From Amoebophrya sp. A120 (Eukaryota > Protista > Dinoflagellata), in contig CAJINV010000001.1 in assembly GCA_905178155.1 (NCBI GenBank), positions 4,816,747 to 4,880,746 on the forward strand: 64,000 bases of DNA, in the 5' to 3' direction. The position numbers and the translations under genes were made by a program. The notes below the pieces were generated by a model. The model made no database searches, had not been told where the DNA came from, and was given only the letters and a program-made list of their open reading frames with translations. Numbering within the stretch: position 1 is the first letter of the stretch; every line of letters begins with the position of its first letter. Shown piece after piece: positions 25,477-64,000 of this stretch.

Positions 25477-25805
25477 AGCTTTTTGTTTTGCAGCTTGAAC
25501 GAACTCGAGCCCAAACCTCCGCACGCCCCCCCCTAGTGCAGGATAAATGATGATGATGATGATGCTGAAGTACAACTTCCGGATGCGTTTAGTTTAGGTT
25601 TCAGGATTTAGGTGGATATGATCCACTTAAGTACAACTTACTCGAGTCTGGGACTTGGTCTTCTTAAACGTCGCAGTCCTTGTCAAATCTCTTTCTATCG
25701 GACCTGGAGAGCAGTACTTCTATGTGGGCAAGTTTGATGATGATGACGGCACCCTCCTCAACATGCACGTTCATGAACAAATACTTACTTAATTATCTCC
25801 TTCAG

Positions 25806-28800
25806 GTTGAGTCCGAAAGAAGCGCGCCGCCGCGGCGGGCCAGCGTAATAGTTCGCCATTTGTCCACGAAATTTGACGCAGAGGCCTTCGAAAAGGCCAT
25901 TGAAAAGTCGTTGCAGAAGCAAAGTCCGCAGCAGGCACCGGAAAGCCTAGCCTACTGCTGCACGCTGAAGGGGCCGAAAACAACTTCTAGGAAACAAGAA
26001 TCAGGGGGACAACACCTACATCAACAACGGGAGCAGCCTTTTTCCCCTCTCGCTTCTCCTGCCGGAGCTGCGGGACTTCCCGGCTCTTACCTGCAGCCGA
26101 GGTCGAGCGTGATTCTGCAGGTTTTGCACTTCAACCAGTGGAGCTACAAGACTTTTGGGTTTCTGCTGCAGAAACTGCACAGCTCCTTTTCCACCACCGG
26201 GTTTTTCAACACGATCTCCGGGTACCGGCAAGTGTTTTCGGACCACCAGGGGGACTTTATCACGAGCCTGGCGGACGCGGGCGTGAAGCGTTTAGCGGTG
26301 GAGGTGCGGGGGAACACGTACAAGCACGATTTTTCCGCGGAAACCACACTGGAGATGCTATCGTATTTAAAAACGTCCGCACCCCAGAGTTGTAAATGCA
26401 AATCGGCATGCTGAAAATGTTTCTCATACGGATCCCCATGAGAAGCATTTGCTATTCGCGTTTTGAAATTTGTCATGCTCCAATCAGCATGATATCCTAG
26501 ACTTGTGATGCTGCTGAACTACCGCAAACAGCACTACACTACGAGTCCGAATTTGTCATGCAAAACAGCCACAAGCTTAGCTTGTGGATTTGTCTAGCCG
26601 ATTCCCCATCTTGACTATGGTGTGGGGACGTTTTTACATAGGATAGATGCACGCGGGCCGGATGTACACGCCGCAAATGCAGAACGTGATCAACGATGCC
26701 GTTGCGATGGCCATCGGGGACCCCCTGTTTCAGGCCTCCGTCGCCGCGGACAAAAAGAATCCGCTGCTGCGCAAGGGGAGGAATGGCAGAGCAGCAGCTC
26801 CGCAGAGAACAATCGTCGAAGAGGATGAGGAGATGCAAGAACCAGGAGAAAACTACGCTGCGACCGGTAAAAATTCTACCGGTAATCTCGTCATTGACAA
26901 GGACTACAAGCGTCGGACCGGCAACATTCTCGTGGAGTTCGAAGATGTGGTTGATATGACGACACCAGCATACCACAAGTGCGAGGCGATGGAGAGAACT
27001 CACATGAGGTACAGCACCGCGGACAGCAGTGATTCGCCTTCTTCCCTCCCGTCCGCAGAAGGCGTGGAGTCGGACTACTTTCTGGCCTCCCCGGCGGCCT
27101 TCGGGAAGGGCAGCAACGTCGTTTGGACTGGTACTGGTACAACAGGTGTTGAGACGTCATCTGCAGGTCGTGGGGCAGACAAGCAAGAGGAAGCTGGCCA
27201 GAATGGAATTGGAGCCGCGAAAAGAACGGAAAGGAATGAAGCCACCCCTGATTCAGATTCATCTCGGCAGCCGAATCCTGCAAGTAGAACAAGCGAGGAA
27301 TCTTTTGATCATACAGGCGAACGTAGCAAGAAGAATCCAGCCATGAAGAAACTGATGGAGATTTTCGATCTCGGGGACCACGTCGACCACTTGTTAACCA
27401 AAGACGACATGGCCCAGCTGCGCGCCGACATTTTTGCCCGCGTCCTGGGCACCCTGGGGTTGCCGGAGTACTTGCAGCACTGGGGGAAGGAGCAGCAAAT
27501 GACGTTTCACGCGGTGTCGGGCCTGGAGCTCCCCAGCGACGTGCCGCAAGCCTTGTGGGTGCCGAACCTGAGTCCGGGGAACATGGCCACGCAGGTGTTT
27601 CGCCACCTGATTCAGGAAAAGATGCGCAACATATGACAGTGCACAACTCCCCCTCCCCCTCATTTGTGATGCAAAATACCCAATCCATTCTTTGCCTCTT
27701 GGCAATGTTTGCATGACAAGTTCTCGTAGCCCAAATAGCACTGCACTCCAGTGCAAATTTGTCATGCAAAACCGGCACTCTTTCTCTTGCTGATGCTTGT
27801 ATTGCCGTTCATGCTATACAAATGAGGGGGAGGGGGAGTTGTGCACTGTCATACAACATCGACGTGCAGGTGGCGGGGTTTCTGCGTCGCGTGTTTCTGC
27901 GGGACCCGGATGGGTTCATGCGAGAAACGCCCTTTCCGCGGCTCGTGGACAAGTGGCTGAGCATGGAAAAAGCGGCGATTATCCTGAGCAAAAACGTCCC
28001 CACACGACCAGAATCAAGATGGGAAATTTGCTATACAAATCAACCAGCTCTGGTTGTTTCGCATGACAAGTTTGTCCTCCTAATGTAATCCTGTTCAGCT
28101 AGTTCAGCAGCATCACAGATCTAGCGCATCGCGCTGATTGGAGCATGGCAAATTCCGAGACACGACGAGAAATCTCCTCTTATGGGGCTCCGCATGAGAA
28201 ATTATGAAGGGACAAAATACCCAAACCTCACTCATAAACCACCTTATTACTTTTTCAAAAAAAGCATTACCGAAACATTGCATTTTCAGAATTCAAACAT
28301 TGCACTTTTGCAAAAATGAAATGCTCTTTTGCATTTTTGGGTAGGACCGAAAAACTCACATCCGGGATCGAAAAAACCGAAGGTCGAACTGCAAAGCCTC
28401 GATCTCGAACTTCAAAGCCTCGATCTGCGAATTTCAAAAGCCGATCTGCGAATTTCTATTCCGATCTGCGAAGTTTCAACCTCCTTCGCAACCGTCCGCA
28501 GTTTCACTTTTTTACCGAAATAGCAAAATCGAAAACCTGTGGTCTAATAAAAAACCACAACTCTGCGCCCCTTCTCCCCAGTGACAGACTTTCCCGCCTG
28601 CGCGCAGCGCGCGCGGGTATTCTCTCGAAGCCCAGCGGACAAAATCCTCCATGCGGGAGATAAAATCCGCCATCCCGGAGAAAAAACATCGCCGGCTAGG
28701 AGAAAAAATCGGCTGGCTCAGGACGCCAAAAATCTGGCAACGGCGGATAAAATCTGAAAGCCTGTCATTTTGGGCCAAAACTCCCAAAATATCCGGAAAT

Positions 28801-31800
28801 TGTGGCCCGAATTCCGGATTTTTTGGCGAAAAGTGGCGAAAGTGACGGGTTTGCTGACTTTGTCCGGCAGTCGCCGATTTTCTGGGCCCCCAAGGAGGCA
28901 GATTTTTTCTCCGAGACAGCGGATTTTTTCTCCGGGATGGCGGATTTTATCTCCCGCATGGAGGATTTTGTCCGCTGGGCTTCGAGAGAATACCCGCGCG
29001 CGCTGCGCGCAGGCGGGAAAGTCTGTCACTGGGGTGAAGGGGCGCAGAGTTGTGGTTTTTTATTAGATCACAGGTTTTCGATTTTGCTATTTCGGTAAAA
29101 AAGTGAAACTGCGGACGGTTGCGAAGGAGGTTGAAACTTCGCAGATCGGAATAGAAATTCGCAGATCGGCTTTTGAAATTCGCAGGTCGAGGCTTTGAAG
29201 TTCGAGATCGAGGCTTTGCAGTTCGACCTTCGGTTTTTTCGATCCCGGATGTGAGTTTTTCGGTCCTACCCAAAAATGCAAAAGAACATTGCATTTTTGC
29301 AAAAATGCAATGTTTGAATTCTGAAAATGCAATGTTTCGGTAATGCTTTTTTTGAAAAAGTAATAAGGTGGTTTATGAGTGAGGTTTGGGTATTTTGTCC
29401 CTTCATATGAGAAATATTTTCAGCATGCAGATTTGCATCGCACCTATGGGGTGGGAACGGAACGTTTTTACATAGGATACCGATGGGCGGGGCGTATCTG
29501 AGCGGATCGGGCTGCAAACTGTTTTTCCACGCCTCCTTGGAGATGGCCAAGGCCTTCCATTTGGGGTCCCCGCAGCAAAAGGCCTACTTCTTTCTCGAAG
29601 GCGGGTTCAGACCGAACATGCTCGTCCAGCAAGAGGTGGGGGCTGCTGCGCCGTCGGTGCGGGTTCCGCTGCTCCTGCGGTTGGGAGTGGAGAGCGACGG
29701 AACGGCGGAGCGTGTCGTCGTCCAGGCACAGCTGGCTCCGCCGGATGTGGACGTGAGTTCGTGGGAGGACAGCGCAAAAGCAGGCGGTCTTGCAAATGAC
29801 CCAGGAGCGCTGGTAACAGGTGAGCAGCCGGAAGTAGCACCAGGAGCATCTGCATCAGGCGGAAAGAAGAAGAAAGGCAAGCAAGCAAAAGCGAATAGTA
29901 AAGCGGGCACATCCGCAGCGGGTGCTGCGGGTGGGGCAGAGACAGCGATGTCAACATCCGCATCCTCGTGTATAGACATGAAAGCAGTACCAGTGGGAAA
30001 TGATGCAAATAATCCTGCAGGTTCAGTTGGTCACCACATCGAGAGATGGTTCAAAACCAATGGCATCGCCCAAGACGGCAGTGTCGGGCTAGATCCACAG
30101 GTTTGTGTTGCAAAGGGCGTCGATAGACTGGCGTCGGCGACAGGAGATGCACAACCAGCTTTCGTCGGATCACAACTTCCACGGTCCCCCGAAGAGAACC
30201 GGGATGGAGAAGACGTATCACAGAATACATATCTCTGCACTCTTGTGGTGACTTCGCCTCGTCTGTCAGGCACGAAAGAGATGGGCGCAAAACCACCAGC
30301 GGAACAAGCTGAGTCTTTCCGCGCCCCATACGCAGATCGACGTTTGCGCGTCGCGAATCTTCTAGGCGCGGGCCGCTCAGATTTGCTGTACACGTTCTTG
30401 GGTGCGAGTAGCTTTCCGACATTGTTCCAAGCTCCAGCTCTTCCAGCAGGGACGCCGAAATCAGTTACACTTCCATCTAGCACGGCTGCAGGTGCCGCTG
30501 TTCCTGGTAAGAAAAACAATCCCCGGTCTGCTGCCTTTTTCGCGCCCTCTTCTTCTTCGAAGACACCAGTTGACCTGATCCCGTGGGAGGACTACCCGAA
30601 GCTGCAGGAAATTTTCTCCTTGGAGTCTGCACTGAAGGAAGAGGTGCGCTCGGCGCTCTTAGAATTCGCGTCCCAGTGGACCCTGGAGAAGGAAGAATTC
30701 GATGACGACCTGACGACGGACCCTATCAAGCAGAATGTCATGAGGAACAGTACTCAGTGGTACGCCGGGCTTTCCAAGAAGTTTGGCGTTTCACGTGCAG
30801 GCACAGAAAGTGGCGGGGGTGGAGAGGATGATCCTACTACTTCACCGACCTGTGCTGCTCCTGGAGGTCGTGGTGCTTCTTCTACAACTACAGAACAAGC
30901 GAAGAAGATGTCCTCCAAGAAGAAGTCGTCTCCTGGCGGAAATATTTCTCCCAGCACTTTGTACCAAGCAACCACTCCGGACGTGAGCACCGTTCCACAC
31001 TGGCTTTCCGGAAAACCGGTGTACAGCGGCGAACTCCCGGACTTCGACCCCAGCAGCGTCTTGCTCTACGTTCTCCCGGAAGACGCTGCCATGGTCGTCG
31101 ACGAGGCCAATCGCCTGCGGAAACTCGCAAATCCCGGAGGTAGAAAAAAGAATCGGATTTTTGCAATTCTTTTTCTTGAACTCAAGAGGATCAACAGGTG
31201 TTTTACTTTTAGGATTTTGGGTTTGTCGTCCCCACCTCGATTCAAAAGCATACCCAGTCATGTGTTGCAAAGTACGTCGCGCTTCTAGCAATTAATAGAC
31301 TTTATGGAATATGAGAGACTGGGGGCGCTGGCTTTGATTTCGTGTTGACTTATTTAACGGCGTCAGTCCTGCTACTGCTTCATGTATAATCTCCAACCAG
31401 GCACAATACCGAACCCCCGCGTTTCTTACGTCGCGTGTGATTGGCAACCGGAAGAGTTGGGTGAAAGTTGGCGAGACAATTTCGGTGGTGATTCGCGGAA
31501 TAACTGGCACATCTTGAATCCCTTTCCCCACTGTGGAGCGCACGAAACCCAATCCAACTTGGTCATCGAGGAAAATCCGACCTTTGCCGGGAAGCAGATG
31601 TTGCGCACGTTTGCGTTGTTTCCGAGTCTGGCGAATTTAGTGGCCATGAAACTGGACTTGTTCGCGAAGTATATCGCTGTCGTAGAGGAATTGCGCCACT
31701 GGATGTTTCAGAAGACACTGCAGTTGATGAAACAACACGTGAAATTTCCCAATTTTCTGTGGGACTTCGAGGAGGACGAAGATGCAGACTTTCGCGAAGA

Positions 31801-34800
31801 TAGTGCTAGCACCGCATCTTCCCAAGAGCTAGCGTTGCTTGTGACGCGACTGTACGAAATCGAGCAGCAAAATCTGTCGCCTTGCAGCAAGGCCAGAATG
31901 CAGGCTGCGCAGGGCATGACCTTGTTGGAGCGGCAAGCTTCCGCGGAGGACAATATTAAATGCGCTACGACAAAAACGGGCACAGGAGAAGGAGCTGACG
32001 CGGTACCAGAAGAGAAAAAGCAGCAGACAGATGACGAAGAGGAGCCACCTTCGCAGCCAATCATGGACAAGAACGGCATCCGGGCGCACGCAATGATAAA
32101 TTTTATCCGTACCAGCAGTGCCAGCATCAACTCCTTTAGCGACCTCCACAGTCTGCTAAACGCAAAGAAGGTCAGAGTCCCCGGGATGAGCAGAAGCACC
32201 ACACCGACCGCTTCGTCAGGTAGTCCCCCACAGAAGGAAGCCGCAACAGGCTTGCTGGCCGGATCCCTGTCGCGTGCGTCTGCCATTGGATCTGGAAATA
32301 GGACATCAGGAACAAGCGGACCGGCTTTTGGCTATGCGCAGCTACACGGAGCAGGAGGCGTGTCCTCGAGTGGACCATCGATCAATGTTGCATCAAGCGA
32401 CGGTCTGAACAAATGTCCCGCCAACATGCGGGACGCAGAGGCGGTGGAAACGCTGGTCAGCTTCTTCTTTGAGACCGAGATCGCCATGAAAAATCGCGTC
32501 CTCGAGATCGAAGACGGCGAGACGCACGCGAAGCGCGTCGTTTCGGAGGACCGAGTGCAAAACATCCTTGCGTGGGCAGCGATTCCCGGGTTCGAGACGC
32601 TGGCGGCGCGGTGGGTCGGCCCGGGGCAGTTTGCGAAACCGGCGCAAGCGCAACACGACCGGGAGGCGCTTCATCTCCGCCGGCTGGCTACGCATTTGGA
32701 AATCCGGAGGGAGTACGTCCGTAAGTTGGTCGAGTCCGCCGCCGCGGAGGCCAATTTCTTCGAAAATCGCCCCGATTTGGTGTACAGCGCGCAGCAGGCC
32801 CGGGCCGGTAATACTATGTCCGCTTCTTTGGGCAGGCAAACTACATCGCATTTTGATTTCTCCGGGCGCCAGCTCCTGTCCGGCGGCGGCTCGTTCCCGT
32901 CGGACGCCGACGGGTTGCCCGGACAGCCAAAATTCGCGCGGGAGCTGACCACGCTGTCGCGCGTGCACGTCAATGCGGTCTCCTTCTTGTTCGGCTCCGC
33001 AGTGACCAACCACCAGGAGGAAGTGCTGGCTTGGTACGAGTTGGATCAGATCTGCAGCTTGAATAGGAGAGCGCTGCTGACGAGCGGGACGACGAGCAAG
33101 GAACACCAGTTGCGTGAGGCGGTAATACAAAACCGGAACACGAACAAGCAACTCGCCAAGTTTGTCGTCGGCACTCCGCAACGCCCGCGGGACTTTTCGC
33201 ATATAACGACGTCTTTGTTTTTGAAATCCCTACGGAAACGCAACTTCTTCCATCACCGCGTTGAGCTGTGCAAGTACGTGACAAATGCGCAGAGCCCGAA
33301 GCGGCAGCAGCAGCTGGAGGCGGAGCAGGCAGAGATCGTTGGAAAGCTCCTGCAGGAGCAACCTAGTAGTAGGTGCAGCTCTAAGAGCTCTGCGTATAAT
33401 TCTGAAGACGATGCGTCAACGACACTGTTGGCGAACAGTTTACGGCTGATCAACTTGCAATGGGAGCGGAAGGCGGGGAACGCGTTTGGCAGGTTTTCCT
33501 TGCGCACCATGGGCGAGTTGCTGCAAACGATCGACGAGGTTGACAGCGGCACGACGACCGGACCAACAACTGTTCAAAATACTGGAGGCCCCGCGGCCGT
33601 TTCTACTTTGTCATCTGCACTACCCCCGGGCTCCTCGTGCACTGCTAATCCTGACTACAGTACTATGAATCCGGTTTTGAAGATGAATCCAAACGCGAGA
33701 CAGGAGGTACAGCAGGATTTGCGGGAAGCTTTGCTGGATTTCCTGCAAAACTTCGGGTTGGTAGCGGAGCTGGTGCACAGTCGGGAGCGTTACCTGCAAA
33801 CTGATTTCATTCAACTCGCGAAAGCCGGTGTGTGGTGGCTGTGGCTAGCCCAAAAAACAGACGAGGCTGGCGTGCGGCCGCTCAGCCCCCGCGCACTGCT
33901 GGAGCCCATTCTTGGGTCCGGGCTGCACCAGTTCCGGGACGAGCAGCACGTTAGGAGCGCGAGTGCATCAACAGCCTCGACAAGCGAGGGCCGTTGTTCT
34001 CGGGGACCGTCCGCAAACGAAAAGACCCGAGTACAAGCTGCCCATAAAGTCGCTCATTCCAGGAAATCTTCTTCGAAGCGCCAGGATCCCACTGGCCGTG
34101 GCGAAGGTGCTACTACCTACGGCATGGAAGTGGACCAGGAACTACACGAGGGGGGTAGCAGTAGCAATAGCATGGTAAATAGCGACGATATGGACGTGGA
34201 TGAGGAGCAGACGAATGCGCCCCCGGGAGATCTGGACGATGTTATCGACGATGATGTTGAAGCCGGGACGGCTGGCACAGACGTGGAATCCACACAGGCC
34301 GGATCGACTCCTCCGGTTACGCCGCGCGGCAGTGCCGCAGTGCCTCTCCAAGAGGATCATGCGCTTGGGGGTGAGGACGGCGAAATGGTAGACGAGCACC
34401 AGGCCTCGAGCCTGCCTAGTTCAAAACCTGGCGACATCGTGGAGCAGGACTGTCAAGGGCTCCATCGGCAGGTTAGTTCTTCCTCTGCAGCGTCCGTCGG
34501 CACGTGCGACGAGCTGGTCGAGCAGCTTTTTGCGCCGGACCGAACGGACTGCAGGATCATTGACGGCTTGCACGAGAATGACCTGGACTTCAGTGAGGAG
34601 TTCCTCGCAAAAGATGAGTCCCAGGAGCTTCACGCGGCTAGCGAGACTGCGCGAGAATATAATCGTCTTCAAGGGGAGCAAGGAAATGGCGGTGCTGCTA
34701 CTACGAACGGAACTACGAGCGCCCCGCCGACGCTGCTCTTGTACCGGCTCTCCCCTATGATGTCCTCAGCTGGGTCATCCGGGTCTCTGGCATCATCAAC

Positions 34801-37225
34801 ATCCTCTGGACAAGGAGGCGGTGCGGCCGAACAGGGTGCTCGAAGCGATACTGCAAATGATATGGAAGTGGATCTAGGTGCACTAGATCATCACGAAGTA
34901 GAGGGTGGCCAGCATGTGCAGAACAGCCACGGAACGCCGGCAACAGGTAGCGTTGAAATAAAAGAGCCTGTGAAGACGGGCACCGCCAGTGCTCTACCTG
35001 TCGCGATCGAACCTACTGGTTCTCTAAACACAGCAGATGCACAACACCTGCCACTGAAAGTCCAGCTCGATCCGAACCATCTAGAAGGGCTGTGTATCGT
35101 TCGCGTGAATCCGGAAGTACAAGAGGATCTTCATGGAGAGAAAACCGATAGTCACGTTGGCGACGCCATCGTGATTCGACACGAGCTCTTCCCGCGCCCG
35201 TACACGGAAGTGCGGTTTCTGCAGACCGGCATCCAGACGCAAATCGACCCCAGAAGAATCACGGTCGTTGCAAACGGGGAGCTGTTTTTTCCTTTGGTAG
35301 AAGTGGAAAGAGACGTGGGATTCGACCAGACAGTGCGGTATCAGGCCTACTTGCTAAAACCAGTCGTGGTGAGCAACCTGACTCAGAACACAGAGGAGGT
35401 CCAGCACAACTCTAAGTCGTCTCCCACAGGACGATCTTCGACGTCCAAGAAGTTTTTGTCCAAAAAATCCGGGAGGTCTGAGAAAGAAGACCTCGGCACA
35501 GCACGCGCCGAGGGTATGCGTTTCAGATTTCTCGTGGCGGACAGCCACTTCACCACCAGTTTCTCTGAAGTCGACGCTCTGGACATCACCGTCTTGAAAG
35601 TGCCCATGGCAGTCGCCGGAAGTTCCTCGCCATCTCAAGCGAACAGAAATATAGCCACGACCACCGCGCAGGAGCTACAGCCGACTACAGGCGAAATAAA
35701 CACCGCCGCCACCACGGCACCGACCTCGTTGGCAAACTTTTTGATGCAACACCTACCGAAATTCGCCGTGAGCACCGAGTTCCGGGTCGTGCGGGTCCAT
35801 CGATTTTTTTCTGCGGAGCAACGGCAACCTATTGACGTCGAGGAACTCGTTGACGACACGATCAAATTCAGCAGCGCCTCGGTGGACGAATCCGGGAATA
35901 AAGAGTCCTGTAACGCGTGGATCAGCTCCCTGCAACTGTCCACGAACGCGGTGGCAAAGTGGTTTTTTCCGTTTTTCGACTTGGAGACGGTGAAGCTCCA
36001 CTACAAAACCGCGGGTATGGGGGCCAAGGGACCGACCGTGCGGGTGAAGTGCGCCACGGACGAGGAAAAGCACGCCGTGATGCGCATGAAGGCGGAATAC
36101 GAGGAGACGGAGCGAGTCGCGGCACAAATAGCAGAAAACCGGATCCATGAGCTCGCCGAGAACGTTTTGCAAGCGCTGCGCAGCATCGGGGTGCACCCGT
36201 TTTTGCAGCTTCCGCCGGAACTGGTCACCAGGCTGTACTACGGCGGTGATAGTACGACTACGATTTCAACTGCACAAGCAAGGCGTGCAATTCATCCGGA
36301 ACAATCAAAAGCGTTACCGCAGCAAGGCGCAATACGTCCGAGCGGGCCGACGCCGAGTGCAACTTCTATTCCTCGCAACCACGGTAATACAACTGGCGGA
36401 ATCAAAGGAAATAACGCTGGTGGTGCTTCATCTCCCAAGAACGGTACACGAAATGTTGATCCAAAAGCCTCCGAGCACCAGGTGTTCGGGATGGTGGGCC
36501 GCAAGAACGTAACGGGGGGGAGGGCAGCCCCAGCGCCAGAGGAGGACCCAGCGGAGCAAGACCTTGACGCCGTATCCAAACTTCTCTTCACCTTGGGTGG
36601 CCGCGCAACGAACGCGGCTTTAGTCAAGCGCCCCGATTTCTTGGCGAAGAGGCGAACCAGGCCCCACAATTCCCACGTCGGGCCGTTGTTTCTGCGTATG
36701 CTGCAGCTCGGGGACCTGGAGCGACAAGCGGCCGCAGGAACGGATGTCCGATTGCACCGCGATACCTACAGAAGTCAGCTGGGTACTGATAGATCACTTT
36801 CTGCTTGTCCTTGTTGTGTCAAGAAGAATGCTTTCGCTTTTATTAAAGGTAGCTCTACTTGTATTTCTCCTCGTCGTCGTCCTCGCGGCCTCTCCTAGTT
36901 TTTCATCGGGCCGTTCTGACGGAGAGTGAAAGAAACGCATTTATGAAGACCTGCTGAAAATCACACAACAGAGGATGTCTTCCGCGAGACAAAATACCCC
37001 CACATTCGCGACCGGATTCTACGGGAATTGGACTCGCACGAGCTCGGCGCGGACCCGGAGGCCGCCGCACCTGGCGCCGTTCAGATTGCGCACTGGGCGT
37101 TAAATTTTGCTATTAGCAACCTCTACCTCCTGGCCGCACAGGAAGAACACGAGTCCGCGCTCTTTCCGGTTGGTGTGTCCCATGCCATGGTCATCAACGG
37201 GGAGCCGGACGATTCCATGGGTTAG
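25806..37225 (+). CDS. Very large hypothetical protein, 3 introners plus conventional introns
   Basis: Frame continuous after removing IEs at 26359, 27632 and 27980 and GT-AG intron 31140-31400; a further probable GT-AG intron near 36774-36971; no domain recognised. Confidence 0.7.
26359..26645. mobile_element. Introner element, family E (287 bp), opposite orientation to copies at 27980 and 57469
   Basis: TIR tatcgtatttaaaaacgtcc / ggacgtttttacataggata; DR gatgc; removal gives LEMHAG. Confidence 0.95.
27632..27853. mobile_element. Introner element, family F (222 bp)
   Basis: 36-bp perfect TIR tatgacagtgcacaactccccctccccctcatttgt; DR caaca; removal gives MRNIDVQ. Confidence 0.95.
27980..29479. 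mobile_element. Introner element, family E, expanded to 1500 bp by a nested foldback element
   Basis: Family E TIRs; DR gcgat/ccgat; removal gives KAAMGG; length without insert and one TSD is 287 bp, equal to the copy at 26359. Confidence 0.93.
28203..29407. mobile_element. Non-autonomous foldback (long-TIR) DNA element, 1205-bp palindrome with 8-bp TSD
   Basis: 28203-~28686 is a near-perfect inverse of ~28923-29407; imperfect pairing continues to a short loop near 28801-28810; TSD tgagaaat at 28195-28202 and 29408-29415; internal 21-22 bp tandem subrepeats. Confidence 0.93.
31140..31400 (+). other. Conventional GT-AG intron
   Basis: ggag|gtagaa...ccaaccag|gcac joins two ORFs in phase and removes an in-frame stop. 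Confidence 0.7.
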
Positions 37226-55300: not shown

Positions 55301-58300
55301 AGAGTTACACTTACACAGTTTTTTTCTTGCATAAGAACCAGGTAATGAACAATGTTTTCACCGCGTGGCAGATCACGAATCCGTACACGTATTACAGTAA
55401 AAAATGCCCCCACTCCCAAACAAGTCGCAAAGATTTGCGATGCGAAGTTTCCAAATGAAAACTTTTTGTCATGCATGAAAGAAGTGCGAATCTTTCTGAT
55501 GCAGATTCTAGGCGTGTATTGCATCGCTTGCATGACAAGCGCCACTCTTTCTGGGGTCTTTTGCAATACAAATTTTTGCTATTCACGATTGGAAACCTGT
55601 GATGCTGATAGATGCAAGAGGGCGAATGTTTCATTTGGAAAGGTTTGCAATACAAATGCTCCTAAGTTCGGGGGTGGGGGCATTTTTCACTTTGATAACA
55701 CGAAACAGAAGTTTCCCGTGAACCCGCAGGGCAATGCTGCCGGCACGACCATGAGCCACACCTACGTCCACAACGAACAACACTTTTTGTACAATGACTA
55801 CGGTAAGTGGCACCTGAACTACGCGAACAAGTTCAGCCGGCTGGGAAACTTCCGCGATTCCCGCCCGCTGGCTTCGTGCATCATGGGATTCTGCTATGAT
55901 TGTGTACAAGTGCAGCTTTTGGTTCCAACTCGTGTGGGTCCCCCTCATTAATTTGCAAATGCAAAAAACCAAATCATAATTAACTTTACTATAGGCACTG
56001 TCTGTTGGGCAAAGAACAGTACAACTTCTCCAATCTTCCGTGCGCAGATTCATTTTCTGTCGTTTCTGGTTTGTTTTGGTTACAGCTGCTGGTCGTCTTG
56101 CTGCTCATGCCATAAGCATCGATCGATGAGGGGCCGCGACGGCTTAGGACCACACGAGTTCTTTTGCACTCTTCGATATCTGGCACAGCAAAGACACCAA
56201 TGGGTGGATCGAGAACACGGCCCCCGTCGGTAACACTTTCAAGGGCAACAATGCGAAGGGGAAGGGAAAGCAGCAAGGCGGTGGTGGGGTTTATAATTTC
56301 GGAACAGCAAATAATGGCGGCGCCGGGGGTGAGCTGAATTCCATTTCAAACAGTAATCAGCGAGGGCAGAATATCCCACGAAAAAAGTGGTCTATGTATA
56401 GTTACACATTTGTTGTCAGTTCAGCAACACAAATTTTCTCTGCACCATGAGAGAGAAAACTTGCAATGCAGAGACCATAAAGGTGGCCAAGAAGACGTAC
56501 GAAATGAGGCTCGAAAGCATTTTGCGCATGACAGAGAGTGTCTCTGTTGCTTCGTCTGCAACAGCACAGTGTGCAACTGTAACATTTTTTTCTTTGCATA
56601 CAGAAGGAGGTGAAAATCGACGTGTGCAGCATGTTCGACCCGAACACGACCGCCCACTTTATGGCGTTCTCAAACGTTACATTCTCAACTGTCACATGAA
56701 TTTGTAATGCAAGACTAGCACAGGTGAGAGGGAGAACCTTGCGCGTCTTGCATTACAGGTTTGATCCGGATTACAGTGCTATTTAGCCTTCCGAGAATTT
56801 GTCATGCGAAGCAGCTTGATCGTCTGGCGGGTCATGGTCATTTTGCATGACAAATCATGTAACAGGTGAGAATGTAACGCTTGAGAACCCCATACACTTC
56901 TGCCTGACGATCAACACCAGCAACGCGAACGGGCGGGAGGACGATTACATCGCGGAGTTCAACCAGAAATTCGTAGGGGCGCAGCACCAGCAGCAGTCGT
57001 CCGCCGTGCACACGGTATGAACTGCAAATATGTCTGGGTCTGGAAGATTGCAGATGTTTGTGATGCAGAGTCTGCGTAAGTAACCCAGAAGAACTAGCAT
57101 GCAAGCCTCAGCATCACAGGTTTGGAGCAGGTTCCTCAATGCCTAATCCGCATGACAAATCCCCTTTGTCGGTGACACGAAAAAGGGGTACTGTTTCTGC
57201 CCATGCATGGCAGATTTTTCTATCACGTAAAATGCGCATCATAAGTTGCAACCTTCCAGACCCAGACATATTTGCAATTCATACACGGTCCCCAGCTACC
57301 AGATGTTTTGGCAGGAGATGGTGAACCAGGTGGAAATCGAGTGCGGCCGCCTACGGTGGTACATGAGCAAGGAGGAGAAGAAGTGCCTGATGCACACCGG
57401 GCTGTCGCAGTTGTGCCAGGGACTCGGGATTCAGACCACCGTGCAAATACAAACGATGCAGGATCTGTTATTCTGAGTAAAAACGTCCCCACCCCATAGT
57501 CAAGGAATTTCTCTGTGCTTTAAATTTGGTCTTTTCCAGTACATAAACACCCCATAGTCAAGATGGGAAAACTGCTAGACAAATCTACGAGCTTAGGTTG
57601 TTGCGCATGACAGGCTTGGCCTCATATTGTAATGCTGTTGAGCTCGTTCGGAAGCATCACAAATCTGGCCCACCGTGCTGATTGGAGCAGTACAAATTCC
57701 AAAACACGACTAGAAGTTGCTTCTCATGGGGCTCCGCATTAGAAACATTTTGAGCATGCGTTTTTGCATTACAACTATGGGGTGGAGACGTTTTTACATA
57801 GGATATCTGTTGAAGGAGCAGGACCTGGACAAGGACGACCAGGATCTTCAAAACGACATATCAAAATGAAAAATCCCCCCACCCCATGTCAAATCGAAGT
57901 TTGTGATGCTGGATTTGCGTACACCAATCAGATTTGTCTTGCTGGAGAGGACTGCAGGCCCATACCAAGCCTGAGCATAGAGGTTTTGGGCTAGGCTCTT
58001 AGCATGAGAAACGTCTGCGCTGTAGGCCCAACAGCATCACAAATCGCCTGCCTAGAGCGGCGGTTGTCTGTGGAGGTGCCTTCTTGCAAGACAGAGATGA
58101 TTTGTGGTCGCAAATCAGCATTGCAAATTTTCTGCTACGTACCTTCTCGATATGGGGAGGGGGGATCTTTCCTCACAATACGACATGTACTACAACGAGG
58201 ACGACGATAATTACCCGCCCGAGGTTCCGCCGTGCTGGGACGACGATGACTACGATGACGAGTTTCCGGTCGGACCGCAGGAGCAAGCCTCCTCGTCCTC

Positions 58301-61300
58301 GCGGATCCCCACCGGAGCCAATAACGCAAACAGCAAGGAGCAGAACACGACCAGTGGCAACAAGAAAGATCTCAATAAAGTAGACCACGACGAAGCACTG
58401 GATCAGCCGCGGCGAACGGCAAGCAACGCAAATGAGGCAATGCACGACAGCAGCAATCCGCTGTTCGAAATTCCGAACATGAAAGACGCGAACGGCAAAC
58501 CGCTGGTTCTTATGCATTGCAAATATGTCTGGGTCTGGATCTGGAAGGTTGCAACTTGTGATGCTGCATGTGGATACTACAAAAATCTGTATTGCATGAA
58601 CAGCAAAAGAGGTCCAGTTTATGCCACGGCGAGAGGGCATTTCTCATGCGGTATAGACATGAGGAAACCCTCACAAAATCTGTGATGCTACGGCATGCAT
58701 CACAGACGTCAGGAGTCATGCAAACTGCGCATGACAAACCTTGCATCCTTCCAGACCCAGACATATTTGCATTTGATAGTTCTGACCAGGGAGCAGCTGG
58801 AAAAGAAGAAGGTCGTCCGGTTTCCCATCAACGACGGAACAGCAGGCGCCGGAACGACCGCCGCGGACGCAGACAAAAAGAAAATCACCTCCAGTATGGG
58901 ATTCTCAATTGTTACATTCTCAACTGTTAATTTAACAGTGTTACATGAATTTCTGATGCAAGAATGGCAACAGGGAAAGGGCGGATCTTGCAACTCTGGC
59001 ATTACAAGTTAGGCACAAACTCCCATGCTGTTTAGCCCTTCCAAAATTTGTCATGCGAGGTAGCTTCACTGTGTGGACGTCGACGTGGACGTCGATGCCC
59101 ATTTTGCATGACAAATCATGTAACAGTTGAGAATGTAACATTTGAGAACGCCATATCCAGCCAGCGGCACGCGTACGAGAGCTACGACCTCGCCCAGACG
59201 CTAGCGGACACGAAATACAACCACAAGAATATTACAATGAAAAATGCCCGCACCCCCGAACTTGGGAGCATTTGTATTGCAAACCTTTCCAAATGAAACA
59301 TTCGCCCTCTTGCATCTATGTATCAGCATCACAGGTTTCCAATCGTGATGAATAGCAAAAATTTGTATTGCAAAAGACCCCAGCAAGAGCGGCGCTTGTC
59401 ATGCAAGCGATGCGATACACGCCGAGATTCTGCATCAGAAAGATTCATACTCCTTTCATGCATGACAAAAAGTTTTCATTTGCGAACTTCGCATCACAAA
59501 TTTCAGCGGTGGGGGGCACTTTTCACTGTAATAAAGAACGATCTGCTAGGGGAGAACGAACAAGACAACGGCTCTGAAGATGCAAACAACTCCGAGGTGA
59601 TCGACCGAAACAAGATGAACTCGTTGAACGTGCCTCACATGAACAAGTGCACACGCGAGCTTTTCTATCCCACGAAAAAACTGTTTCACTGTGAACTTGT
59701 GATGCATGGAATGGAACACAAAGCTATTTCTATTTGTCTTGCTACACGTGCAAGACATTGGATTTTTAAGGGTGTTTCCCCTTGGGAAGTGCGCATGGCA
59801 AATTTTCTGTGCCATGTGTGACAAACTTGTGATGCACATCTTGCAAAATCATCACAGTGAAACAGTTTTTTCCTGCGATATTCTCCGCAGTATCTTTAAT
59901 TTTGACCCTACCCGCCCCACGTGGAACGTAGTCAGTGCGAAGACCGTACGCGTGCAGGGAGAGAATTTTGATGCCGGTGTTGGAGAAGGTACAGCAACTG
60001 GAAGTGCAAGTTCCGCCGCTGTGACTGCTGGAGCTGCAAGTTCATCAAGCAGTAGCAGCTCCTCCTACTTATCGACCAACAATAAATGCGGAAATATTAG
60101 TAAAGGTGCAGATGATGACCCAAGGGTCCCGGGGTCGTCCTCCTACATTGAGTTGGACGTGATTCCCGCGGAGGGCAAGCCGTTCTGGCAGAATACCATG
60201 CTGGACGTCCTGCGGGCGGGACAGGGAAAGCCGATTCTGCTATCAGAAGGAAAAATCCCCCCTCCCCATATCGAAACGAAGTTTCTGATGCTGGATTTGC
60301 GTACACAAATCAGGTGTGTCTTGCAGTGAAGGACTGCAGGCCCATATCAGACCTGAGTAGAGAGGGGCTAGCCTAGGCGTTTAGCATGAGAAACGTCCAT
60401 GCTGTAGGCCCACCAGCATCACAGACCGCAGGCATAATGCGGCGGAGCCTGTAGAGTTGCCTTCTTGCAATACAGACGCGACTTATGGTCACAAATCCGC
60501 ATTACAAATTTTCGGAGGCGTGCCGTTTCGATATGGGGAGGGGGGATTTTTCCTTTTGATATCTGCGGAACCCGCAGGAGCAGGAGGAGTTCCGCAAAGA
60601 GCAGCTCGCTATCAAATGCAAAAATGTCTGGGTCTGGAAATTATCTAGACTTGTCATGCATGTTTTCCATGCCCCATGACGTCTGTGATGCATGCCGTAG
60701 CGTGACAGATTTGTAGAGCGCTTTGTGATACCTCTACCGCATGAGAAACGCCCTCTCCGCGTAGCACAAACTGGAGTCCTCTTCCCTGGTCATGCAATAC
60801 AATTTTTTTCAGAATCCAGCGACATTAGCACTTCCGGTTGGTAGAGCGATCGGCTACCGAGGCACGTCAGGGGGCGTCGCTACTTCAATTCAATTCAATC
60901 CAGCGACAGCATCACAAGTTTAGAATGTTCCAGACCCAGACATATTTGCATTTGATACTTGCCCAGCTTGACGAAGCGCTCCGCGTCCTGAACGCGTGGC
61001 GGGAGCAGATTGCCGACGGCGCCTGCATGGAGGCGGGGGGCTCAAAGGGAAAAGGGAAGAAGTCCTCTGCTTCGACCATCGCCAGTCGCATGGGCATGGG
61101 GATCCCCGACGGCGAGCAGCGGTGGCATACGGAAATAGGGCTACGCGACGATCGCAGTCGCTATCCCGCGGGGTACGAGCCGGAGAGCGACGAGGAGGAC
61201 GAGCAGGACGACACTTCTGATGAGGAAGAGGACGAGGAAGAAGAAGATACTATTACCTCTGCAGAAGAGGATATCACAAATACTACGAGTCAGAAGCTGC

Positions 61301-62157: not shown

Positions 62158-64000
62158 ATACAGACGAGGCCGCAATACTACATATAAGGACTTCGACGAC
62201 TAATTGATATTGAAGATGATGCAACGTAACTACTAGAAATTTTTGAGATCATACTTCTACTGCAGGTTGAGCAGTTAGTTTCCAGGTGAGAATATGCGGT
62301 TTTATTTTTCAAATCATACGATCGATAATTTAATCAACAACGCAAGAGCAGCAGGGCTCGCACCGAACCCGATGCGAACAGAGCAGGAAAGAAAGAGACA
62401 TGCTGGGCCTCTCTTAGAACTAGATGACGGAGAGTAGACGTCAGACGATAGATAGAAAACTACTGGAACTACGCAGAAAAATATAATGAGCAGACGACAA
62501 TGAAAAAAGAATAAACAAGCATCATGGTTGATGTGATCGATTGCGCTCGAATCGTCGCGCGATTGTTACTAATATTCCTGGTGTCCTCTTTGGCCAAGCA
62601 ACAAGCAAGCGAGCACCGATAAGCGATAAAGCGTGTTCCTTCACGCGTCCTATCAGCAGTCCGAATATCATCGCTTCTTGCACAAAACCTATCAATGATC
62701 CTCAGCGCGTATTCCTCATGCATCCGCCTTCCATGCGGAATTCACGTCCTCAGCGCGTATTACGACTGGACTTAACATCCCACGCGCTTTGCAAGTGCGA
62801 ATTTTTTGGCTTATGTTTTACAGTGTGAAGAAGGGGGGTACCTGGGATCCGCTTCTTTTCCTGTTTGGTATCGGCCGCTGCTTACCGCCGGATCAGCGCA
62901 TTGATACGAAACTCAAGAATATAGAGAAATAGATATGAATCTAAGAACAAACCAGGCTAAAATCGGTGAAGTGACTTTATCGATTTTAGCATAGTTGTCA
63001 ACTTTTTGCGTCTCAGAGCCACGTAATGCTAAGAGATCTTTTTCGCGCAGCGGCAGCCAATTTCTTTTTTTCATTCGCATTTGTGATTTTCTTTCCGCAT
63101 AGGGATAAGTCAAAAACAAATAAGGTGAAAAACATCCTCCAGAGCACACAGGTGAAAAAAGAGCCTTGACAGACCAACATTTGTACAAACGTAATGCTTG
63201 TCACAAAGGTGCTACTTCTGCTCTAGCAAGATGAAGAGAAATTCAATGTCTCAATATGTTCGTTTCCACTGCCAAGAATAATTATATTATAATTCTTTTT
63301 GGATGAGGCTTTTTGTTTTTTTGGGACTTGAGAGGCTCTCTTTGGGACTTGGTCGCCAGGCTCTCTTTTTTTCCCCTCGTGATTCGCAAAAAAGGACGGG
63401 TGGACCCCTTTCCGGGACTTGAAGTAGCCAGAATACCACCGGAGGAGCTCGGAAATTAAAGGAAAAGGCCCCCGCTTGATGCTGCTGTTTCTTCATGGAC
63501 CGGAAAAGGCAAGCGGCGAAAAATCTTCATGGACCGCGTCGGCGAAAAATCAGCTGCAACGCAAAACCCTGGGGGCTGGAGCGACGCACAACCTTACCAC
63601 TTGCCGCCCACACAACCACAACGCTTTTGGTTTCGCAGACGCATAGTGACTGCTTCAAACATGCATGGATAAGTTGGAGGGGGTTGGAGAATCTCTTTAA
63701 TTGACATACGCATCTGATCTCCGGCTATTGATTAGTCGCTCGGGCTCAGCGATGGGAGAGCGCGAGAATCGATCGGGCGAACGGGAACAGTTTTCGTCGT
63801 GCGCGCCCGCGTTGGGCGGCTGCGAAGCGGAAAGAATCCGCGTGAGGCTATCCCACCGAGGCCCGAGCGAGGATTCTCCCAACGCTGCCAAGTCCTTGTG
63901 AGGGCAGAGGGCTGCGTGCGTGAAAAGGTCCCGGGCGCGTTGCCATTGACCCGCGCGAGCAAACTCGCACGAAGAAGTGCGAGGCTGTATCTAATGTGAA

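Follow-up and report, generated by a model that had tools for sequence, protein, structure and literature searches.

A 64,000-nucleotide (nt) window of the genome of Amoebophrya sp. A120 (contig CAJINV010000001.1; all positions are those of the window) contains a palindromic foldback element of 1205 base pairs (bp) inside an introner, which itself interrupts a protein-coding gene. The foldback is probably a real, very low-copy foldback-type transposon. It is likely non-autonomous and of the cut-and-paste type, was likely moved by a transposase related to that of the introners, and is likely removed passively with the 1505-nt intron in which it lies. This is based on its anatomy, the host introner restored when it is taken out, the absence of coding signal, an end that fits the profile of introner ends, contigs of a sequencing run that show a further arm, a public gene model that takes out 1505 nt at non-canonical ends and an orthologue that is continuous over the junction.

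The foldback is composed of two long inverted arms and a shorter centre, flanked by a short direct repeat.

28203-29407, no strand assigned: foldback-type non-autonomous element with terminal inverted repeats (TIRs), 1205 bp in the 8-bp register, ends TATG...CATA, no coding signal
28203-28686, forward strand: left arm, 484 bp, six mismatches to the right arm
28924-29407, reverse strand: right arm, 484 bp
28687-28923, no strand assigned: centre, 237 bp, a decayed palindrome into which the inner 21-bp array continues
28384-28479, forward strand: outer 21-bp tandem array of the arm, about 4.5 copies, mirrored at 29131-29226
28641-28723, forward strand: inner 21-bp tandem array, spanning the boundary of arm and centre, mirrored at 28901-28969
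28195-28202, forward strand: left copy of the 8-bp target-site duplication, TGAGAAAT, perfect
29408-29415, forward strand: right copy of the 8-bp target-site duplication, TGAGAAAT, perfect

A preliminary description of this DNA had reported near-perfect arms of about 480 bp, and the arms are indeed 99% identical over 484 nt, with mismatches at 28305, 28319, 28324, 28424, 28542 and 28575. Its statement that the element is almost wholly self-complementary is correct for the arms, while the centre is self-complementary only loosely. Identity drops sharply at the arm boundary, from 99% to 69%, and self-alignment of the centre gave matches in 84 of 122 columns, a score reached by none of 2000 shuffles. 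There are two 21-bp tandem arrays per arm and, since the inner one spans the arm boundary, the centre is an older, decayed part of the same palindrome. The right arm includes a perfect 30-bp palindrome at 29285-29314, the left-arm mirror of which (28296-28325) holds three of the six arm mismatches. The arms have nothing in common with the flanking DNA, and no further copy of the foldback was found within the 64-kb window.

The 8-bp flanking repeat had been described correctly. Alternative registers are a 9-bp duplication, with which the ends of the element become asymmetric, and a 10-bp duplication with one mismatch, giving ATG ends. The earlier statement that there is no credible open reading frame also stands, as none of seven reading frames within the element or over its edge matched Pfam at E ≤ 1. 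Five Rfam matches in 26000-31500 were all under the gathering scores and were treated as generic hairpin matches.

The host is a member of introner family E, and one uninterrupted sister copy lies nearby.

27980-29479, no strand assigned: host introner of family E, TAT...ATA ends, 287 bp without the insertion
27975-27979, forward strand: left copy of the 5-bp duplication of the host, agreeing at four of five letters with the right copy (29480-29484)
26359-26645, no strand assigned: uninterrupted sister copy of family E, 287 bp, in the opposite orientation to the host

The host shows the traits of an introner: a TIR with a TAT end, a 5-bp repeat, membership of a repeated family and interruption of an exon at non-canonical ends. 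The foldback is inserted 64 nt from its right end. The length of the host (1500 bp) is the sum of 287 and 1213 bp, the latter being the element plus one copy of the duplication, so that removal of the insertion restores a 287-bp family E element, as first noticed. On either side of the insertion point the host aligns collinearly with the sister at 26359-26645 (76% over 285 nt) and with a second family E sister at 57469-57805 (80% over 259 nt, 57552-57805), and in both of these copies the 8-bp target site is present once only.

Nesting in itself is ordinary in this window, where 3 of 29 introners carry a second insertion. The idea that an introner serves as a safe site for the foldback would fit this proportion. 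The family E introner at 57469-57805 has a 43-nt insertion at 57490-57562, with a 15-bp duplication, just inside its TIR. The introner at 60610-60957 has a 72-nt insertion at 60813-60908, with a 12-bp duplication, a stretch that is tRNA-like by eye and a short tandem-repeat tail. This looks like a retro-insertion of the short interspersed element type nested in an introner; no second copy of it was found within the window.

Four of the eleven listed sequencing runs (X1, X3, X4 and X9) were compared with positions 26650-28920, a range that covers the left arm and the centre. Run X1 is likely DNA; its pieces are the contigs listed for it, and the depth of a contig is not equal to copy number. 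The foldback centre is contained in a 297-nt X1 contig (depth 46.1), which is identical to the window over the 264 nt compared. Exon pieces in X1 have depths of 42.4 to 58.4, indicating that the centre is at single-copy depth. From its length, the centre contig should reach 30 nt into each arm, a symmetric pattern that is expected if both arms are real. Depth was 66.2 for an inner arm piece (28484-28686) and 103.6 for a terminal piece (28203-28513), which starts exactly at 28203 and has four differences, two of which occur in neither window arm. In a further X1 contig (depth 62.3), single letters are inserted after 28507 and after 28548. Its start falls at 28484 by bin arithmetic (computed 166.12, reported 166.1), and the match is lost at about 28563. 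These pieces are read as at least one more arm of the foldback family elsewhere in the genome, the interior of which would be different or truncated. The X1 depths leave room for only about two elements at ≥ 85% identity. For comparison, the summed contig depth in X1 exceeds 40,000 over the left part of the host introner.

The other runs added little. X9 (raw RNA) gave two reads less than 90% alike, likely from another strain and uninformative, and X3 and X4 (guessed to be RNA) reached a depth of about 4 on the exon, too little for use, and of 0 on the foldback. A match to the terminal 20-mer (L001, one in metagenome_contigs) extends over at most 21 letters and has no inverted partner, and a match to the terminal 18-mer (L002, one in viral_contigs) extends over at most 19; both were attributed to chance.

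Removal of the foldback together with its host can be followed in public gene models.

27980-29484, forward strand: composite intron of the public gene model, 1505 nt, with five equivalent registers (start at 27976-27980)
27859-27979, forward strand: exon upstream of the composite intron, 121 nt, with boundaries that slide within the duplications (P0002/P0004 model)
29485-31139, forward strand: exon downstream of the composite intron (public models, protein search)
27632-27853, no strand assigned: neighbouring introner of another family in the same gene, with a 36-bp perfect TIR and a 5-bp duplication, removed as 227 nt

The five registers of the 1505-nt intron have CG-AC, GA-CC, AT-CG, TT-GA and TA-AT ends, none of which is GT-AG or GC-AG. 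An exhaustive protein search with the downstream exon gave three proteins (P0001, P0002 and P0003). P0001 (CAD7924077.1) and P0002 (in the cluster of CAD7924076.1), both from Amoebophrya sp. A120, are 100% identical to the window exons, and P0002/P0004 (CAD7924076.1) is reproduced only when the neighbouring introner is taken out as 227 nt and the composite intron as exactly 1505 nt. The orthologue P0003 from Amoebophrya sp. AT5.2 is continuous over the junction (37% over 111 columns, E 5e-17). Because it aligns without interruption, the full protein needs removal of the 1505 nt. The model and the orthologue thus support the earlier claim that the whole 1505 nt is removed with the exons in frame. 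A120 gene models were made from transcript alignments and from protein alignments assuming canonical sites, as described in PMC7789003; since the protein-based models assume canonical sites, the 1505-nt junction was most likely derived from a transcript. Judged by reading frame at the host alone, 1505 nt does not stand out from other lengths (190 open codons on removal of the element plus 3, 189 on removal of the element plus 5), which is why the public model and the orthologue were used as the basis. A canonical GT-AG alternative at 27953-29475 is unlikely, as it would lose WLSM, which is conserved in the orthologue.

Folding predictions are consistent with passive removal. The foldback alone is predicted to form one hairpin (-1042 kcal/mol) of about 570 bp, close to the roughly 600 bp that had been proposed. 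As had also been suggested, such a hairpin might serve as a source of small RNAs, or the DNA might form a cruciform. When the whole intron is folded, 480 of the 484 arm pairs are predicted to form, and predicted probabilities for the terminal pairs of the host are 0.81 to 0.95 with the insert versus 0.75 to 0.88 without it. In these predictions the insert seals on itself and the terminal stem of the host stays paired.

It had also been pointed out that the foldback has TAT...ATA ends but a duplication of another length than its host. Both are correct; the likeness was, however, under-read, as the foldback end resembles introner ends well beyond TAT. All 58 ends of the 29 introners listed in the window begin TAT, and the introner motif of A120, given in section 11 of PMC7789003 as TAT, about seven free letters and then a run of A, is also found at the foldback end. 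An end profile was scored on positions 4-24 only, using the 58 ends in its final version. On this profile, the foldback end outscores 28 of 46 leave-family-out introner ends, and the share of shuffles reaching its score was 0.001 to 0.002. In a first null set the score was reached by 12 of 869 TAT sites, 11 of which were ends of introners then unlisted. In the final null set (full introner list, four more introner-like regions masked) it was reached by none of 801 other TAT-starting 24-mers. The best identity to a single introner end was 16 of 24, and the terminal 8-mer had no match in the supplement text of PMC7789003, in which motif figures are images. To judge from sequence, this likeness indicates either a related lineage of transposase or a splice signal in common, and the foldback may not be unrelated to introners.

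The foldback is best filed, on its sequence features, as a very low-copy member of the foldback-type non-autonomous TIR transposons, under no superfamily and not as an introner. It has the structural features of this group: long TIRs, tandem repeats within them, a non-coding middle and a duplication in the 8- to 10-bp range. That it is a non-autonomous foldback-type transposon nested in an introner, as previously proposed, is supported by the 8-bp duplication, the restored host, the tandem-repeat arms and the further arm in X1. Foldback elements are described in PMC4079207 as having long arms, internal tandem repeats and a non-coding middle, and as mostly assigned to Mutator, with 8- to 10-bp duplications; Muta1, according to PMC5225508, makes duplications of 8 or 9 bp and has tandem repeats in its long TIRs. 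Tetris of Drosophila virilis and the type-2 foldback Muta1 of Aedes aegypti resemble the A120 element in having few complete copies, a duplication of 8 to 10 bp and a middle without coding capacity between long TIRs that contain tandem repeats (PMC4079207, PMC5225508). In contrast to both, the middle of the A120 foldback is a decayed palindrome, its TATG ends fit the introner profile and it sits in a non-canonical intron. With A120 introners as described in PMC7789003 and PMC12130899 it shares a TAT start followed by a run of A, TIRs and no coding capacity; it differs in its 8-bp duplication, which is outside their direct-repeat range of 3-5 nt, in its 484-bp arms, in its very low copy number and in lying within an intron rather than an exon.

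Among hAT elements, hAT5 families have 5-bp duplications (PMC12730594), like introners, and hATm has TA ends, 8- to 9-bp duplications and TIRs of 417 and 575 bp (PMC6004678), resembling the foldback in its TA start, duplication length and long TIRs. Both are described there from lineages other than Amoebophrya. Merlin, as presented in PMC8101967, has an 8- to 9-bp duplication, TIRs of up to 462 bp and tandem repeats and is present in dinoflagellates, but its GG ends are lacking in the foldback, for which reason it was rejected. Galileo of the P superfamily has a foldback structure with TIR extension into internal sequence (PMC3573991), but a 7-bp duplication, where the net length here is 8 bp. 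A 5-bp duplication with three extra terminal bases was also rejected, as those bases are the next bases of the host.

Supplement file 8 of PMC12130899 lists fully palindromic introner families for A120 (fam14, fam15 and fam56) and introner families of 700-1600 bp, which makes the hairpin and the length of the composite intron less surprising. An element of about 1205 bp with a TIR near 480 bp is in none of the 58 A120 rows of that file, which were compared by description and many of which give no length. Nor is such an element in Amoebophrya described in the titles and abstract openings of the literature searched. Euglenid nonconventional introns are similar in that structure brings the intron ends together, as far as the sources describe them, and fungal stwintrons likewise consist of nested introns but are given there as canonical U2 introns.

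The explanation considered best, that of a foldback moved by an introner-related transposase and carried out with its host intron, would work as follows. A DDE transposase acting in trans would insert the foldback by an 8-nt staggered cut, with the 21-bp arrays as candidate binding sites for it, by analogy with Galileo and Muta1. As a best guess its lineage may be hAT-like, because hAT has lineages with 5-bp and with 8-bp duplications and a TA-ended family with long TIRs. The outer 484 bp might have stayed identical, or become so, through recombination between the arms, while the centre decayed. Splicing would rely on the ends of the host, whatever the length of its interior and whether or not this is continuous. 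The foldback would be carried out along with the host intron, since the insert is predicted to pair with itself and to leave the host terminal stem paired.

A number of observations weigh against this explanation. A single enzyme that makes both 5-bp and 8-bp duplications is not expected. Among the 29 introners of the window, duplications are perfect 5-bp repeats in 24 and agree at four of five letters in 5, and in none are they 8 bp long. The end-profile test covers one window with about 7.5 effective end types and with four introner-like regions masked. The foldback end agrees with the hATm consensus TAGGGTG at only four of seven letters, the initial TA being all that the two have in common as a motif. 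In supplement file 8 of PMC12130899, one family of A120 that has TA ends and duplicates 5 bp is classed as Ginger, which argues against a hAT reading of introners, and a family with an 8- to 9-bp duplication (fam65) is classed as Mutator, with GG/CC ends. No transposase is known in A120 according to section 16 of PMC7789003, and none was among 23 long reading frames of the window, no frame of which matched Pfam at E ≤ 0.001. The further arm is known from arm sequence alone, without flanks or duplication; no listed piece of X1 spans the stretch, and X1 may be the source of the assembly. As to splicing, the P0002 model, a 96-amino-acid partial, is the sole gene-model basis, and the junction was seen in no read or contig of the four runs over the range compared. 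There are also four in-frame GT/GC-AG pairs within 30 nt of the host ends, although these would remove residues conserved in the AT5.2 orthologue.

That the element is instead a nested foldback of Mutator/MULE type, unrelated to introners and like them at its end by chance or convergence, is possible though doubtful. Its long TIRs and duplication fit that superfamily, to which most foldback elements are assigned and which includes, in fam65, a listed A120 family with a duplication of similar length; Muta1 has the same architecture, and the 9-bp and 10-bp registers also fit the letters. However, TATG...CATA does not fit the GG/CC ends of fam65, the foldback end beats 801 of 801 control sites on the introner profile, and the start of the X1 terminal contig at 28203 weakly favours the 8-bp register. 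Even less probable is a twintron, in which a TAT-N8-AAAA end would be the signal of non-canonical splicing and the foldback would leave the pre-mRNA in a first step, followed by the restored short introner in a second. Such a two-step process is unnecessary if, as predicted, the host stem forms with the insert in place, and the listed families of 700-1600 bp indicate that length is no barrier. The idea draws on the fit of the foldback end to the introner profile, on arms that are predicted to bring the foldback ends together perfectly, on the fully palindromic families listed for A120 and on a splicing mechanism that section 10 of PMC7789003 leaves open, U1 not having been found. The 8-bp geometry of the duplication is nevertheless at odds with the 5 bp of spliced introners, and there is no RNA evidence here for an inner junction.

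Two further readings concern the origin of the palindrome itself. It might have been captured, or made on the spot by template switching, during repair of a double-strand break, the 8-bp repeat then being a repair scar. The very low copy number, the lack of a second copy in the 64-kb window and the sharp step from 99% to 69% at the arm boundary, which implies a copying event, would suit such an origin. It is nonetheless highly improbable, as the inverted ends stop exactly where the duplication begins, the arms have no likeness to flanking DNA and contain tandem arrays of the kind that is typical in foldback TIRs, and a further arm is present in X1. There is next to no chance that a fold-back chimera or gap-closing error in the assembly turned a repeat into a palindrome. 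A chimera would not yield a duplication that restores a collinear host, the arms differ at six places around a diverged centre, and the unique centre is at single-copy depth with no differences and symmetric contig ends. Such an artefact could be argued from the published A120 assembly, which according to PMC7789003 keeps Illumina scaffolds with gap closing, and from the X1 terminal contig, which differs from both arms at two places; X1 is possibly the assembly's own source, and its evidence consists of contigs and not of long reads.

How introns without GT-AG ends are removed in the absence of a detected U1, and which transposase spreads introners, are open questions in Amoebophrya (PMC7789003 sections 10 and 16). 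The locus is a natural experiment on the first, since an intron of 292 nt has become one of 1505 nt with about 570 predicted bp of duplex 64 nt from its end. The public model still takes out the lengthened intron exactly, to the nucleotide, which suggests that the splice signal lies in the terminal stem predicted by folding. As to the transposase, a young-looking foldback (99% identical arms) with low copy number and introner-like ends may have an autonomous partner that can be found. New here is the fit of the foldback end to the introner end profile beyond TAT despite a duplication of 8 bp and not 5 bp. What raises the locus above an ordinary nested insertion is a composite non-canonical intron that is still removed in the model, together with an introner-like end next to a duplication of differing length; unless such leads are taken further, it is one more transposon nested in an intron.

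A wider proposal, which should be regarded as unlikely, is that the foldback forms one transposon clan with A120 introners, of which there are tens of thousands, all with TAT-N7/8-AAAA ends, and that this end motif and terminal pairing together make up the signal for U1-less splicing in Amoebophrya. The foldback could then be spliced out on its own, and the locus would be a non-canonical twintron. If this were true, foldback copies in exons would be tolerated, since removal of the element plus 5 leaves three of the eight duplicated bases, that is, one codon. An autonomous partner of the low-copy family would then name the missing lineage of introner transposase.

At least 29 introners with TAT...ATA ends, in about seven families, occur between 9030 and 62122, and 17 of them are between 51989 and 62122. 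Internal motifs such as TTTGTCATGC and GCATCACA are common to several introner families and are found in both orientations; from their sequence, they could be common protein-binding sites. A short imperfect palindrome (62950-62996, 47 bp, 81%) lies outside the listed introners.

The gene that holds the non-canonical introners also has a canonical GT-AG intron at 31140-31400, used by the P0001 model. P0003 of AT5.2 (2844 amino acids) matches window exons from 27331 to 37192, and the A120 models P0002 and P0001 are likely pieces of one long gene, at about 25800-37222 of the window, with no Pfam domain. Of 11 local frames compared with Pfam, one gave a sub-threshold match, which lies in an exon. 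When longer proteins were searched by word index with exon 26647-27630, none of 5363 candidates matched. Contigs of X1, X3 and X4 contain a second version of 26715-27195, about 7% different and at single-copy depth in X1, which represents a paralogous copy of the host gene at another place in the genome.

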